Of a stretch of 64,000 bases of DNA, positions 58,892-63,566 are shown one piece after another (within the stretch, counting starts at the first letter, position 1; each line of letters begins with the position of its first letter). A program made the position numbers and the translations under genes. Source of the stretch: Patescibacteria group bacterium (GTDB taxonomy: Bacteria > Patescibacteriota > Patescibacteriia > XYB2-FULL-38-15); contig JBAZEY010000001.1 in NCBI GenBank assembly GCA_041653675.1, forward strand, positions 64,098 to 128,097. Direction: 5' to 3'. The notes beneath the pieces are model-generated. The model searched no databases, was not told the DNA's origin, and saw only the letters and a list, made by a program, of their open reading frames with translations.

Positions 58892-60184
58892 ATGAAAAAA
58901 ATAGTTCAAAAAATTTTATACGTTTTAGCCCGATCAATTTTAAAAAAATATAAGCCCGAAGTTATTGGCATTACGGGCAGCATGGGCAAAACTTCTACTA
59001 AAGAGGCGATTTTTGCCGTGCTGTCTTCTAAATTCCGCGTGCGCCAGAATTTAAAAAATTATAATAATGAACTTGGCGTGCCGCTTTCTATTTTGGGAGC
59101 GGAGTCTGGGCGGAAATCCATTTTGAGATGGCTTGGGATATTTTTCCATGGCATAAAATTAATTTTATTTCGAGACGCCGAATATCCGCAGATTTTAGTT
59201 TTGGAAATGGGAGCCGATCACCCGGGTGATATAAAATATTTAACAGAGCTCGCGCCATGCAAGGTCGGTGTTGTGACAGGAATCGGTCCGGCGCATTTGG
59301 AATTTTTTGAAAGTATTGAAAAAATTATTAAAGAAAAAAGAGTAGTTGTGAGCCATCTTCGTCCGGAAGGTTTCGCAGTTTTAAATCGTGATGATGAGAA
59401 AGTTTTTGAGATGAGAGAAAAAACGCGAGGTAAAGTTTTGACTTATGGTTTTAACGCGGAGGCTGAAGTTCGGGCCGGGGAAGAGGGGATGATTGGAGAT
59501 GGTGTGGAAATTTCCGGAATGAATTTTAAATTGAGTTATGCTGGCGCGGTTGTTCCGATTTTTTTGCCCGGAGTTTTGGGGCGGCAACACATTTACGCGG
59601 CGCTTGCCGGCGCGGCCGTGGGAATTACTTATGGAATGAATCTTGTTGAAGTTGCTGAAAGTTTAAAAAGATATATAGCGCCGAAAGGCCGGATGAATTT
59701 GATCCCCGGCATCAAGAGAACTTTGATTATTGATGATACTTATAATGCTTCGCCAATTCCCGTGGAAGCGGCGCTCGGAGTTTTACAATCAATAAAACTT
59801 CCGGCGGAAGATGATAAAAAATTTGCCGTGTTGGGCGATATGTTGGAACTCGGAAGCTTCAGCGAAGAAGGGCATAAGCAAGTTGGACGGGCTGCGGCGG
59901 CGAGCGGAGTAGATTTTCTCGTGACGGTTGGCGAGCGGTCGCGCGATATAGTTCGGGCGGCAAAAGAAGCCGGAATGAGTGAAGATAAAATTTCTAATTT
60001 TCCAACACCGGAAGAAGCAGGAATTTTTGTTCAGGGAAAAATGAAACAAGGGGACATAGTTTTGATAAAAGGATCGCAGGGAATGCGGATGGAAAAAGTT
60101 GTTAAAGAACTTATGGCTGAACCCCTGCGGGCATATGAATTTTTAGTCAGGCAAGACGCGTCGTGGGCGCGTAAGAGAGAATAA
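58892..60184 (+). CDS. murF: UDP-N-acetylmuramoyl-tripeptide--D-alanyl-D-alanine ligase
   Basis: Mur ligase P-loop GITGSMGKTSTKE. Follows the PBP gene as in dcw clusters. Confidence 0.8.
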   Translation: MKKIVQKILYVLARSILKKYKPEVIGITGSMGKTSTKEAIFAVLSSKFRVRQNLKNYNNELGVPLSILGAESGRKSILRWLGIFFHGIKLILFRDAEYPQILVLEMGADHPGDIKYLTELAPCKVGVVTGIGPAHLEFFESIEKIIKEKRVVVSHLRPEGFAVLNRDDEKVFEMREKTRGKVLTYGFNAEAEVRAGEEGMIGDGVEISGMNFKLSYAGAVVPIFLPGVLGRQHIYAALAGAAVGITYGMNLVEVAESLKRYIAPKGRMNLIPGIKRTLIIDDTYNASPIPVEAALGVLQSIKLPAEDDKKFAVLGDMLELGSFSEEGHKQVGRAAAASGVDFLVTVGERSRDIVRAAKEAGMSEDKISNFPTPEEAGIFVQGKMKQGDIVLIKGSQGMRMEKVVKELMAEPLRAYEFLVRQDASWARKRE

Positions 60185-60254
60185 GTTGTGATATTTTAGA
60201 TTTAAGATTAAAGCGGGCCATGAAAGGCTCGCTTTTTGAAACCCCCATTGATGC

Positions 60255-60283
60255 TTGACAAATTCGTTATCATGGTTTATAAA
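60255..60283 (+). promoter_or_regulatory. sigma70 promoter TTGACA-17-TATAAA driving a noncoding GC-rich transcript
   Basis: Read from the sequence. Follows the murF terminator AGCGGGCC...GGCTCGCTTTTT. Confidence 0.5.
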
Positions 60284-60290
60284 TAGAGAG

Positions 60291-60446
60291 CCGCTGACAG
60301 ACCCGTGGGCGGCATGCCGGCCCGAAAGGCTCGGCGACGGAGGTTTGTTCGATGTACAAGTCAACGTCTGTCGCACAGAGATCGCGCTCTATGCGGCTAC
60401 ATGGGTCACTGGCTCTCGATCGAAACGACCGAGAGCCACTTTTTAT
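60291..60446 (+). ncRNA. candidate small RNA (~155 nt, GC-rich, own promoter and terminator; family unidentified)
   Basis: Long-range helix AGCCGC-U-GACAGAC / GTCTGTC...GCGGCT. GNRA hairpin GCCGGCCC-GAAA-GGCTCGGC. Terminator TGGCTCTCG...CGAGAGCCACTTTTT. No plausible ORF. Confidence 0.35.
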
Positions 60447-60482
60447 ACATACAGCGAGCCGCTGATTTTTTTGTCGACAATT

Positions 60483-60511
60483 TTTTCTTTTTTTGATATA
60501 CTAAAAATCAG
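60483..60511 (+). promoter_or_regulatory. promoter TCGACA-17-TATACT for tRNA-Glu
   Basis: Read from the sequence. Confidence 0.4.
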
Positions 60512-60523
60512 TTTAGAATTTGA

Positions 60524-60598
60524 GGCCTCATCGTCTAGCCTGATCTAGGACGCCTCCCTCTCACGGAGGAAACTCGGGTTTAAATCCCGATGGGGCTA
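60524..60598 (+). tRNA. tRNA-Glu (anticodon CTC)
   Basis: Acceptor GGCCTCA/TGGGGCT (two G-U). D-arm GTCT...GGAC. Anticodon loop CTCTCAC. T-arm TCGGGTTTAAATCCCGA. CCA encoded. Confidence 0.75.
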
Positions 60599-60798
60599 CC
60601 AAAATAAATTAGAAATTAAATACAAACTAGCAAAAAGAAATTACCGCGAATTTATTGCGAAGGATTTAAACCAGGGAAGGGTCGGAAACCGCTAGGTTTC
60701 CGTTCGCGGAAATATTAAAACCGCAGGGTTTTAAGGAGCGAAGCGACGTTTAATTTCCCGATGGGGCTACCAAAAATAAATTAGGAATTAAATAAAAT
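60578..60798 (+). repeat. ~46-nt direct repeat of the tRNA-Glu 3' end plus 25 nt of downstream flank (TTTAAATCCCGATGGGGCTACCAAAATAAATTAGAAATTAAATA; second copy 60753-60798) flanking a ~130-bp hairpin-rich spacer
   Basis: Near-identical copies read from the sequence (3 differences). Confidence 0.6.
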
Positions 60799-60803
60799 AG
60801 TCT

Positions 60804-61493
60804 ATGATTACAAAAATTTCCGAAATTATTTTTTTGGTAGGGTTATTGGTATTCGTGGGTGCCGGTTGCGGTAATAAAAATTCTGCTGATAACGAGGAAC
60901 CGGTAGAAAGTGATTCAGCAAGTCTTTGCGACTCGGCCAAAGAAATGAAGTCGCCAAGTGATTTTGCAAAAGAATTAAAGGAAATTTTTGAAGAGGCCGG
61001 CGGCAAGGTAAAAATAACAGACAGTACGGAACAAGATTCGGCGAATGGAGAAATGTTTACTTTTGTTTGGGAAAATACACCTACGGCCAAGGATTTGGAA
61101 GATGCTTTTAAAAAACACGGTTATAAAATAGAAGTTCCGGGTACGGCTATGGTGGTTTCAAAAAATAATATTATTTTTGAGTTCAATTTGACGGAGGGAT
61201 CTGAATGCGCACAAGTTATTGTCAAAAAAACAGAGGGGCCGTTTAATCGAGCCAGCAGGGTAACAATTAGTGAATGTGCGGAAATGAAGGCGTTAGCTCT
61301 CCATGCCGATGTAAGAAATCATGATTTAGGTACTGCTATGATTTGGGCTAAAAAATTATTCGACAGAATGGCCGTGATTGAGGCAAAATATGGCATATCG
61401 GAAAAACAACTCAAGACGATTTGTGAAGGAACAAGAGCCAAGGAATCGGGATTTGACGCCTTGGTGGATGAATGGGTGCGGTTATTGGAGTAA
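60804..61493 (+). CDS. lipoprotein, hypothetical
   Basis: Lipobox VGAGCGNK, 229 aa. No recognisable domain. Confidence 0.45.
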   Translation: MITKISEIIFLVGLLVFVGAGCGNKNSADNEEPVESDSASLCDSAKEMKSPSDFAKELKEIFEEAGGKVKITDSTEQDSANGEMFTFVWENTPTAKDLEDAFKKHGYKIEVPGTAMVVSKNNIIFEFNLTEGSECAQVIVKKTEGPFNRASRVTISECAEMKALALHADVRNHDLGTAMIWAKKLFDRMAVIEAKYGISEKQLKTICEGTRAKESGFDALVDEWVRLLE

Positions 61494-61519: not shown

Positions 61520-62233
61520 ATGTTTCATCAAGTTTGGCATGATGTTCTATACACCCCTCTTTTGAATGTTTTGATTTGGCTTTATAATGTTCCGGCTTTT
61601 GGAAATTTGGGCGTAGCGATTATTTATTTAACAATCATTATTCGCGTTGTTCTTTTGCCTTTTACGGTTGTTTCCGAACGCAGCAAAATTTTATACGAAA
61701 GATTGGGGCAAAAGATAGACAGAATCGGGCAAGATTTTAAAAACGATCCGATTCAGAAAAAAGAAATGATTCGCAAGGTCATGCGCGAACATCGAGTGAG
61801 CCCTTGGGCAAAAGTTATGGTTTTAGGCGTTCAGGCTTTAACCTTGGTTCTTTTGTACCAAGTTTTCATTGGCGGAATTAATGGCAAGCTCGGCGACCTA
61901 TATTCTTGGGTGACTCATCCAGATTTTATTAATACGGATTTTTTGGGATTTGACTTGGGAGAGGTGAGAAATTTATTTTGGAGTGGGCTGGTCGGCGCGG
62001 TTTTATTTTTAGAAATTTTTATTGACTACCGCGGCAAGTCAACCGGACTCACTAAATCCGAAGTGGCTTACATGATCTTTTTCCCCGCTGCCGTTTTTCT
62101 GACGCTCTGGATTTTGCCGATAGCTAAATCAATTTTTATTTTAACTTCAATTTGTTTTTCTTTTATTGTAATTTTCTTTAGGCAGATATTTAAAAAGAGA
62201 TTTGAAGCGGCGCCCGCAGAGTCAAAGAAATAA
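61520..62233 (+). CDS. yidC: YidC/Oxa1-family membrane protein insertase (short form)
   Basis: Conserved core GNLGVAIIYLTIIIRVVLLPFTV...KILYERLGQKIDRIGQDFKNDPIQKKEMIRKVMREHRVSPW. Confidence 0.7.
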   Translation: MFHQVWHDVLYTPLLNVLIWLYNVPAFGNLGVAIIYLTIIIRVVLLPFTVVSERSKILYERLGQKIDRIGQDFKNDPIQKKEMIRKVMREHRVSPWAKVMVLGVQALTLVLLYQVFIGGINGKLGDLYSWVTHPDFINTDFLGFDLGEVRNLFWSGLVGAVLFLEIFIDYRGKSTGLTKSEVAYMIFFPAAVFLTLWILPIAKSIFILTSICFSFIVIFFRQIFKKRFEAAPAESKK

Positions 62234-62347: not shown

Positions 62348-62376
62348 TTGACAAAATTTTCATTCCATGATATAAA
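62348..62376 (+). promoter_or_regulatory. sigma70 promoter TTGACA-17-TATAAA upstream of the GC-rich noncoding unit
   Basis: Read from the sequence. Confidence 0.5.
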
Positions 62377-62384
62377 GATATGTG

Positions 62385-63566
62385 CGGGCAAACTTTCGTA
62401 AATTCAATCCGGGAGGATTAAGACACCGGTAGGTGATTGCCTCTCCAACAGGCCCGCCTTGAAAGATACGAGCTACCGCTCGTTGGAAATATGACGCGGC
62501 AGATAACTGCCGTAAGCCGCTGTAGCGCAATACGGGTATGCGTTTCGGAGCAATACCCTGAAGTTGTGGAGGTTCAAATCCTCCCTAGCGGCTCTACGAA
62601 GGTTGGCGGCCGGCGGAAGATCTCAGCCGGGTACGTCAGCAGCGGCCAGCGCGCTTGGCGCGTGTGGCTTAAAAAAAAGCCCAGTGGCTAAGTCCAAGGG
62701 GACTAGAATTGGGAAGTGTGCTCTCCCGAGCCACAGGGGAGAGCGCCAAAGCTTCCGCGAGCCGAGCTCGCGTTGGCAATAAGTTGCGGTCGGTCTGAAA
62801 GCGCGAATACGAGCGTGGTGTCGGGTTTCCCCCGATGGCTCTGGGCGCTTGCCGGCCGCGACCTGCGCTGTTCCAAAGCGGCTGCCAGAATGCGGTCGTT
62901 GAACGCTCGCCGCCAGAATGCGGTGGGCGGAATGGCGCAGATCTTTGCTCCCCGTGGTTGCCTGGATGGTGGTCTGGGCATGGGGCATTAAGGTTTCCCG
63001 ACGCCACTTGGGAAATCAGGAGGAACCCTGCTCGTCGTTATCCGCCTTAGGCGGACTGCGGCGGGTATAAAAATCTCGCGGGTGCCATCACACACTGCGA
63101 GATGGGGGCGGCACAATCGGACTCGGTGGGGTGGATCCTCCTGAGGAGGAGTTCCAGCCGAGATCGGTTCCGGGCCAAGGGAGGCCTGCTGTGTCGCTTT
63201 CTCTTAATCACGACCCATCGGGTTTGTCGGGCTTGCTCGGCAGCACGGTGGGTTGGGGCCCGGCGGTTGTCCAGGTGGTTCTGGGCAGGGCTTTAAAGGA
63301 CGCTCTCCGCCGCTATAAGAGAGGTCTAGGCGTTCCTGTCGTTCCGCAAGGGGCGAATCCCGATACTGAAACCACACCAGTAAAGGGACATCAGGAAGCG
63401 ACATAATCATGTTCCCCTCCCTGAGGAACACATGATTCCGGGCTATTTCCCGCCGTGGTATGCCTGCGATGTCGCAGTTTGCTCAGTACTTCCAAGTGCG
63501 GAATCCCGCGCGAGGAAGTCGCGATACTGCGCCGTGATGATTCATTCGTCACGGCGCCCTTTTTTA
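62385..63566 (+). ncRNA. candidate large structured RNA (~1.2 kb, ~58-60% GC, promoter-to-terminator, no credible ORF; family unidentified)
   Basis: Arg-rich junk ORFs in all six frames. Dense local hairpins. Embedded tRNA-like element. Ends at strong terminator GCGCCGTGA...TCACGGCGCCCTTTTTT (63529-63566). Confidence 0.3.
62515..62591 (+). pseudogene. tRNA-like element (acceptor, D-arm and canonical T-arm GGAGG-TTCAAAT-CCTCC present; anticodon arm degenerate)
   Basis: Hand fold gives 7-bp acceptor GCCGCTG/TAGCGGC, U8, A14, D-stem GCGC/GCGT, T-loop TTCAAAT. No 5-bp anticodon stem/7-nt loop. One extra base between T-stem and acceptor. Confidence 0.3.

Follow-up and report, generated by a model that had tools for sequence, protein, structure and literature searches.

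What is transcribed from the spacer between murF and the tRNA-Glu gene of a patescibacterial genome, and how might the product act? The question is raised by a 64,000-nucleotide (nt) stretch of DNA from an uncultivated, Falkowbacteria-like member of the Patescibacteria (assembly GCA_041653675.1, contig JBAZEY010000001.1, positions 64,098 to 128,097 of the forward strand; hereafter the window), in which murF is followed, in this order, by the murF terminator, a putative small RNA (sRNA) unit, the tRNA-Glu promoter and tRNA-Glu(CUC). Patescibacteria, the Candidate Phyla Radiation (CPR), have tiny genomes and few regulators, and genetics is lacking for most of their lineages. To our knowledge next to nothing has been learned about their regulatory and structural RNAs, which are essentially uncharted, and our search of the literature on CPR non-coding RNAs (ncRNAs) returned nothing relevant. 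The reading we favour is that the unit is an accessory ncRNA gene whose product of about 155 nt adopts a compact fold and acts by means of that fold in trans; to this reading as a whole we assign a probability of roughly 40%. That the unit is a real, expressed and selected ncRNA gene is, taken by itself, highly probable.

The unit has the outline of an independent gene. Its promoter combines a -35 element that matches the consensus perfectly with a spacer of the optimal length of 17 nt, and both hexamers are unchanged in 8 of 8 copies while the spacer drifts. The transcript is predicted to start at A60289 or G60290, 6–7 nt past the -10 element, and to end within the U-tract of an intrinsic terminator, two pairs of whose stem show compensatory changes on both sides across the copies. 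Neither signal was reported by our automated scans. The consensus promoter scan demands a T at the last -10 position and therefore skipped the promoter, and the terminator was skipped as it was treated as having a loop of more than 8 nt. Invariant G-U pairs and the U-tract are compatible with the plus strand only, which places the unit on that strand; the fold of the single sequence has a z-score of -3.5, but the opposite strand equals it, so that this value carries little weight. On the upstream side the unit is bounded by the murF intrinsic terminator, and its G+C content (0.51–0.54) stands out against about 0.40 in the flanking DNA. An earlier description made from the letters alone (the sequence-only reading) had proposed a self-contained promoter-to-terminator unit and had argued that tRNA-Glu, with a promoter of its own, does not depend on it as a mere leader. 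Both points hold: TTGACA-17-TATAAA and the terminator are present, the unit recurs in seven other distinct sequences, and TCGACA-17-TATACT ahead of the tRNA is retained in genomes that lack the unit. Comparative evidence thus supports the view of the unit as an independent non-coding gene that runs from promoter to terminator, not a tRNA leader.

Related loci were gathered via MurF, and one motif scan of Joint Genome Institute (JGI) metagenomes was added. The nearest MurF relatives come from metagenome-assembled genomes that bear the label Candidatus Falkowbacteria or Patescibacteria group. In total, the unit was obtained in eight distinct copies (the window, L047, L001, L066 (=L067), L068 (=L069), L002, L046 and L073), and all of them occupy one locus in close Falkowbacteria-like relatives, downstream of the murF terminator and ahead of the tRNA-Glu promoter. 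The three-part motif scan of the JGI metagenomes yielded only two copies, both at this same locus, and when 52 Patescibacteria murF loci and the window were searched with the covariance model, no further copy emerged; matches in L038 (15 bits) and L054 (17 bits) were judged to be chance. Viral contigs, scanned for 16-mers and for a two-part motif, produced chance matches only, as judged by covariance-model rescoring, and blastn against phages and plasmids found no homologue of the sRNA. About a dozen relatives have an empty site instead, where the murF terminator is directly followed by the tRNA-Glu promoter (L003, L005, L006, L007, L058, L059/L060, L061, L063–L065, L075/L076 and L077). These genomes are equally close (MurF 74–91% identical), and a neighbour-joining tree of MurF does not unite the genomes with the sRNA in one clade, but groups the window with the empty-site loci L058 and L061. 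Copies confined to one locus, together with empty sites in equally close genomes, point to an accessory gene, which by these searches appears restricted to a narrow Falkowbacteria-like clade of Patescibacteria. A lineage-specific sRNA had been one of the options offered in the sequence-only reading, and it is the one that survives. Gained or lost between near-identical gene neighbourhoods, the gene is a testable candidate for an RNA-based function at the level of strains.

The core of the RNA is under strong purifying selection. Among the window, L001, L002 and L066, fourfold-degenerate third positions of murF are 49–57% identical and thus near saturation, and murF DNA overall is 81–84% identical, whereas the sRNA core (alignment columns 1–122) is 83–92% identical. 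The pair L001/L066 is much closer (78% at murF fourfold sites) and was excluded from these values. It is the difference between the core and the fourfold sites from which strong purifying selection follows. The unit is also, on the comparative evidence, non-coding. The earlier statement that it holds no open reading frame (ORF) is right in substance and not to the letter, as mechanical ORFs of 37, 63 and 97 amino acids (aa) overlap the unit and none of them is conserved. Insertions and deletions among the copies (+1, +2 and -1 nt) are not multiples of three.

Helices were taken from an RNAalifold consensus of five sequences, and pairs were counted over five, seven and eight sequences. The resulting model consists of four hairpins (P1 to P4), the terminator and a tentative pseudoknot (Table 1). 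For the whole model, 96.8% of pair cells hold standard pairs as against 30–45% in slid controls, and changes on both sides of a pair occur in 10 cells as against 3.1 in shuffles, a value of 10 being reached by none of 500 shuffles. Two pairs of P4 have changed on both sides (CG/UG/GU and GC/AU/GU), and the helices of P4 and of the terminator are conserved and backed by compensatory changes. In P1 three pairs vary on one side and yet stay paired (G-C/G-U, U-G/C-G/U-A). P3 has an upper stem that is 2 base pairs (bp) longer in L002 and L073, and an invariant segment, GCGACGGAGG, lies in the P3 region at the junction 60333–60343. The GNRA hairpin of the sequence-only reading corresponds to P2 (60316–60335), which is present and conserved. 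Its loop is of the GACGG type in L002, unlike the other copies, so the GNRA character is not strict; moreover, the two 8-nt arms originally assigned to it are not fully complementary, and a bulged U is needed, giving a stem of 4+3 bp with a CGAAA loop.

A long-range helix that had been proposed to close the structure fared less well. Its segments are complementary in the window (AGCCGC at 60289–94 with GCGGCU at 60393–98, and GACAGAC at 60296–302 with GUCUGUC at 60366–72), but it was tested twice without gaining support and is rejected as the functional fold. It shows no double-sided change in the eight sequences, and its measures equal those of shuffles. It is broken exactly at its variable columns 4:111 and 8:87, two of which, 87 and 111, are partners of one another in P4 and covary there. 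If the helix is retained, the best fold has -40.1 kcal/mol, about 10 kcal/mol worse than the optimum of -50.5 kcal/mol. Covariation among homologues, to which the sequence-only reading had referred the matter, thus backs P4 and the terminator and leaves the long-range helix without compensatory changes.

The 12-nt loop of P1 holds the 5' strand of the proposed pseudoknot. This helix is paired at 100% in 8 of 8 sequences, and it has changed on the 3' strand alone, from C to U and from A to G, with pairing preserved as wobbles. Nested alternatives are almost isoenergetic: the fold with local P1, which is the minimum-free-energy structure, has -50.5 kcal/mol, and the variant with the long-range GACCCGUG/CAUGGGUC helix -48.9 kcal/mol. 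P1 and the GACCCGUG/CAUGGGUC helix are sterically compatible, and together they would form the tentative pseudoknot around P2–P4. Across the 3' strand of P1 and the 5' strand of P2 there is also a perfect 10-nt palindrome, CGGCAUGCCG (60310–60319, plus strand), which every copy retains, in part as wobble variants; it is possibly a dimerisation site or a site of alternative pairing.

According to the mechanism that we propose, an abundant and stable RNA would be transcribed from the promoter with its perfect -35 element and 17-nt spacer. The RNA would fold compactly into P1, P2–P4 and the terminator, with the P1 loop probably pairing with the segment ahead of the terminator so that a pseudoknot encloses P2–P4, and the folded molecule would bind a protein or a small ligand in trans. 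Nearly every nucleotide of the core of about 120 nt is paired or invariant, no long accessible antisense seed is visible, and downstream of the unit there is no regulated ORF. Taken together, these features make fold-dependent action in trans the most likely mode, and classical antisense pairing or cis regulation less likely. Considered alone, this mode of action is an argument by exclusion and is held tentatively. It is tempting to speculate further that the pseudoknotted core represents a new class of functional RNA fold, such as an orphan aptamer that senses a ligand, a small ribozyme or an RNA that specifically sequesters a protein, carried on an exchangeable accessory cassette in these ultra-small bacteria, but this would be a distinctly unlikely outcome. 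The sRNA might also belong to a cluster of structured RNAs centred on tRNA-Glu, together with an element at about 60640–60778 and a large RNA at about 62384–63565 (see below).

Several observations speak against the interpretation as an accessory RNA that works through its fold. The -10 hexamer TATAAA does not have the final T, a position that is usually conserved, and expression, transcript ends and abundance of the RNA are all inferred from DNA. The entire comparison of folds draws on eight closely related sequences. The 4 basal bp of P3 are weak and broken in 3 of 8 copies, and the pseudoknot and P1 carry one-sided, wobble-type changes only, for which reason both stay tentative and are not proven. 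No partner protein, ligand, target or co-occurring gene was identified, and the antisense screen covered the 64-kb window, or about 7% of a genome of about 0.9 Mb. Finally, many close relatives do without the gene.

The alternative that survives best is a regulatory sRNA which pairs through a short exposed segment with mRNAs elsewhere in the genome; we regard it as possible but rather unlikely. Its own promoter, terminator hairpin and U-tail give the unit an architecture typical of trans-acting sRNAs, and the invariant GCGACGGAGG junction and the P3 loop, UCGAUGU, are candidate seeds. GCGACGGAGG is unchanged in 8 of 8 copies although the GACG/CGUC helix in which it takes part is broken in 3 of 8, so that it may be single-stranded. 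Within the 64-kb window, however, no complementarity above chance was detected, the longest match being 12 nt where about one such match is expected. Most of the RNA sits in conserved helices, and the conserved portion of about 120 nt is well over what a seed would require. The comparison with sRNAs that end in Rho-independent terminators runs the same way. A sigma-70-type promoter, a size of 100–200 nt, a terminator hairpin with U-tail, an intergenic position and restriction to a lineage are shared, whereas an exposed conserved seed or a target was not found, and conservation and pairing extend over almost all of the molecule.

Under a different explanation, the unit would be the cargo or the remains of a small cassette, mobile or recombining, at a tRNA-Glu hot spot; it would be kept for the benefit of the element itself or carried along passively, and would have no function for the host. 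Presence is patchy even among genomes with 87–91% MurF identity, and the sRNA-positive genomes are, as said above, not monophyletic. Only in the window and in L047 is the sRNA terminator separated from the tRNA-Glu promoter by a second, decayed murF terminator, which aligns, with a 7-nt deletion, to the intact one of the empty-site genomes. This remnant on the 3' side of the unit bears on how the cassette arrived: it fits a cassette of terminator, promoter, sRNA and terminator that was set ahead of the old murF terminator, recombination with a relative being the simplest route, and it suggests insertion or replacement at this site. The region has also received other insertions, among them a GIY-YIG ORF with duplicated fragments of the tRNA 5' part, a 157-aa ORF and an element bearing a tRNA 3' end. 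Against mere cargo stands the fact that the unit always occupies a single locus, with no second copy in the data examined and no terminal repeats, transposase or integrase seen; homologues were likewise absent from the phages, plasmids and viral contigs searched. Above all, the strong purifying selection implies that the RNA itself does something, and we consider a functionless cassette unlikely.

A role in cis is improbable. The unit would then tune transcription into tRNA-Glu, either as a tandem promoter or as an attenuator resembling a riboswitch, in which the conserved fold senses a signal and read-through is decided at the terminator. Such a role would account for the succession of promoter, compact aptamer-like fold with a possible pseudoknot, and terminator, for the pseudoknot 3' strand stopping 2 nt short of the terminator, and for the constant position immediately 5' of tRNA-Glu, the U-tract abutting the -35 element of the tRNA promoter in 6 of 8 loci. 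The tRNA gene, however, has its own conserved promoter and is present without the unit in many relatives, and in the window the decayed terminator additionally separates the unit from the tRNA promoter. No conserved antiterminator was seen on inspection, a systematic search not having been made. At the extreme 5' end 4–7 nt resemble the 3' arm of the terminator, but they are unconserved and lie mostly upstream of the likely start, and no further competing pairing was noticed. No riboswitch class of Rfam is matched. Among orphan RNAs of riboswitch type, some that carry a terminator at the end function as sRNAs, for example SreA/SreB of Listeria and EutX/Rli55, which is controlled by a B12 riboswitch. 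The present RNA resembles these in having an aptamer-like conserved fold followed by an intrinsic terminator and no directly controlled ORF, and differs from them in that it matches no known aptamer class and that no alternative between terminator and antiterminator was seen on inspection.

A divergent housekeeping RNA is highly improbable. The size of about 155 nt, the G+C content above that of the flanks and the GAAA-capped hairpin would suit 6S RNA or signal recognition particle (SRP, 4.5S) RNA, both of which are of similar size, G+C-rich and structured. The sequence-only reading had considered a 6S-like RNA and had found the fit to SRP RNA poor; the first suggestion is not borne out, and the second judgement is confirmed. 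The Rfam comparison which it had advised was carried out with Rfam 15 and matched no family, 6S and SRP RNA included, either at the gathering threshold on the whole window or at E<=10 on a 701-nt region and on the 127-nt core alone. Matches at E<=10, for example PyrR204 and, on the minus strand of the terminator, Actino-pnp, were set aside as chance. The helices with covariation are local hairpins and do not form the rod with central bubble of 6S RNA. Many close relatives have no such gene at the locus, and the metagenome motif scan found copies at the murF/tRNA-Glu locus only, so the distribution is neither that of a housekeeping RNA nor universal as for SRP RNA. Domain IV (helix 8) of SRP RNA carries a conserved internal-loop motif of the AGCA / GGAA type. 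P2 has the GAAA loop but no such sequence. The weakest alternative, that the 37-aa ORF (60352–60465) encodes a small protein, has next to no probability and is refuted by the comparison, for although the ORF exists in the window with a Shine-Dalgarno-like GGAGG 7 nt 5' of its ATG, five of the eight copies have lost the start codon (ATA in L001, L066 and L068, replaced in L002 and L073), the indels shift the frame, and substitutions follow the helices rather than a codon-like pattern.

Other assignments were dropped. No tRNA-like element was called by ARAGORN or by the Rfam tRNA model in 60289–60444. Derivation from tRNA-Glu gained no support from local alignment (score 15, shuffles 14.3 +/- 2.0); the strings AGCCGCUG and GCGGCUAC are common to the sRNA and to tRNA-Glu or the nearby large RNA, yet the alignment scores lie inside the shuffle range. 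On inspection, an HDV-like (hepatitis delta virus) double pseudoknot was discarded as there is no P3/L3 hairpin, a T-box as there is no specifier plus UGGN bulge, and a GNRA-receptor reading as there is no 11-nt receptor; a T-loop reading was likewise dropped. The sRNA is thus a new lineage-restricted family of a familiar kind that matches no known RNA family. A close parallel in kind is the raiA-motif RNA, or ModT of Clostridioides difficile (PMC11706538), one of the independently transcribed structured ncRNAs whose function is unknown or was assigned only recently. Both have their own promoter and terminator, a compact fold of several helices and no adjacent regulated ORF, and in both conservation goes far beyond the needs of a base-pairing seed. 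They differ in that neither sequence nor structure matches (raiA is in Rfam), in size (about 155 versus about 200 nt), and in distribution, the raiA-motif RNA being found in thousands of species and the sRNA in a handful of closely related Patescibacteria, among whose near relatives it is dispensable.

The sRNA matters mainly as a strongly selected, compact RNA gene on an exchangeable accessory cassette in bacteria whose ncRNAs are hardly charted. What can be made of it is restricted by its very narrow occurrence, by the small set of eight near-identical members and by the lack of a functional handle. At least two other structured RNAs, also unannotated, lie close to it.

Table 1. Annotated features between murF and tRNA-Glu, in window coordinates.
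Feature	Position	Strand	Remarks
murF (MurF)	58892–60184	+	Mur_ligase_M and Mur_ligase_C domains; named UDP-N-acetylmuramoyl-tripeptide--D-alanyl-D-alanine ligase in the sources
murF intrinsic terminator	hairpin 60213–60232; T-run (T5) 60233–60237	+	GCGGGCC/GGCUCGC; homologous terminator in all related loci
sRNA promoter	-35 TTGACA 60255–60260; 17-nt spacer; -10 TATAAA 60278–60283	+	near-consensus; from the sequence and the comparison of eight copies
Predicted sRNA transcript, about 155 nt	60289–60444	+	eight distinct homologues; covariance-model scores 144–188 bits
P1, local hairpin	GCCGCU 60290–95 with GGCGGC 60308–13	+	100% of cells paired; 12-nt loop
Pseudoknot 5' strand (tentative), GACCCGUG	60300–07	+	RNAalifold consensus
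P2, hairpin GCCGGCC-CGAAA-GGC(U)CGGC	60316–22 with 60328–35	+	96% of cells paired; one bulge
P3	60336–48 with 60356–68	+	basal GACG/CGUC, GA/AA internal loop, 7-bp upper stem, UCGAUGU loop
P4, hairpin	GUCGCACAGAG 60370–80 with CUCUAUGCGGC 60387–97	+	100% of cells paired; best-supported core helix
Pseudoknot 3' strand (tentative), CAUGGGUC	60400–07	+	2 nt ahead of the terminator
sRNA intrinsic terminator	60410–60444	+	13-pair stem 60410–22 with 60426–38 (UGGCUCUCG...CGAGAGCCA at 60410–60438), then C and U5 at 60440–44
Decayed second murF terminator copy, ACAGCGAGCCG..CUGAUUUUUUU	60451–60472	+	window and L047 only
tRNA-Glu promoter, TCGACA-17-TATACT	60474–60502	+	kept in genomes with and without the sRNA
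tRNA-Glu(CUC)	60524–60601	+	downstream neighbour of the sRNA in 8 of 8 loci

The surroundings of tRNA-Glu are variable in further respects. Directly 3' of the tRNA lies a conserved non-coding element of about 130–170 nt (60640–60778, plus strand), which also occurs in L058 (11535–11663), L003 (4530–4660), L005, L061, L066 and L073. Its 3' end is a copy of the 3' strand of the tRNA T-arm, the 3' strand of the acceptor stem and CCA, and an internal segment, CCAGGGAAG, pairs with this copied tRNA 3' end. Differences between the tRNAs are compensated in the pairing (CUAGGG with GAUAGCGG in L061, CCAGGAAAG with UUUUCUGAUGG in L066), and the element looks like a mimic of the tRNA 'top half' rather than the scar of an attachment (att) site. 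It had no Rfam match.

The tRNA-Glu gene itself is a hot spot for small insertions (L001 4585–4915, L068 5745–5960 and L073 5355–5450). The inserts consist of partial duplications of the tRNA 5' part followed by hairpin-rich stretches such as CCACCCUUCGGGUGG and UCACCCGUAGGGUGA, and the one in L001, after which an intact copy of the tRNA follows, contains an ORF of 83–98 aa for a GIY-YIG nuclease (Pfam E=2e-13). In L066 (3495–3968) and L068 (4974–5447) an ORF of 157 aa, with a hydrophobic helix at the N-terminus, is inserted after the stop codon of murF and ahead of its terminator. It was seen only in these two loci, both of which bear the sRNA, and it has no significant Pfam match (SoxE_N, 20 bits, is under the cut-off). 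By eye, the presence of the sRNA showed no correlation with that of the 157-aa ORF, the element behind the tRNA or the large RNA. In L007 (4350–4480), from a more distant member of the Falkowbacteria, the spacer between murF and tRNA-Glu is filled by a different inverted-repeat element of about 120 nt (GUCAUUCUGAGCAGAGCGAAGAAUCUC...GAGAUCCUUCACUGCGUUCAGGAUGAC). Yet another variable piece of the region is an ORF of 229 aa (60804–61493, plus strand) between the element behind the tRNA and yidC; its N-terminus is lipoprotein-like (…VGAGCGNK…), it has no Pfam domain, and it is present in the window and L058 and missing from most relatives.

The large RNA is a candidate structured ncRNA of about 1.2 kb (62349–63565, plus strand) between yidC (61520–62233) and the next gene. 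It has no Rfam family at E<=1, its G+C content is 0.55–0.67 as against about 0.40 in the flanks, and it contains short ORFs only, on both strands. As for the sRNA, the promoter is TTGACA-17-TATAAA (62350–62378), and a terminator hairpin with T6 lies at about 63531–63565. Embedded in it is a tRNA-like cloverleaf (62516–62593) that scores 27.4 bits with the Rfam tRNA model, just under the cut-off. Conservation is modular in L068, L061, L003, L058, L001 and L002, and in a 425-nt core compared over five sequences 27 of 99 predicted pairs show compensatory changes. With its much richer covariation, this RNA may be a more rewarding target than the sRNA.

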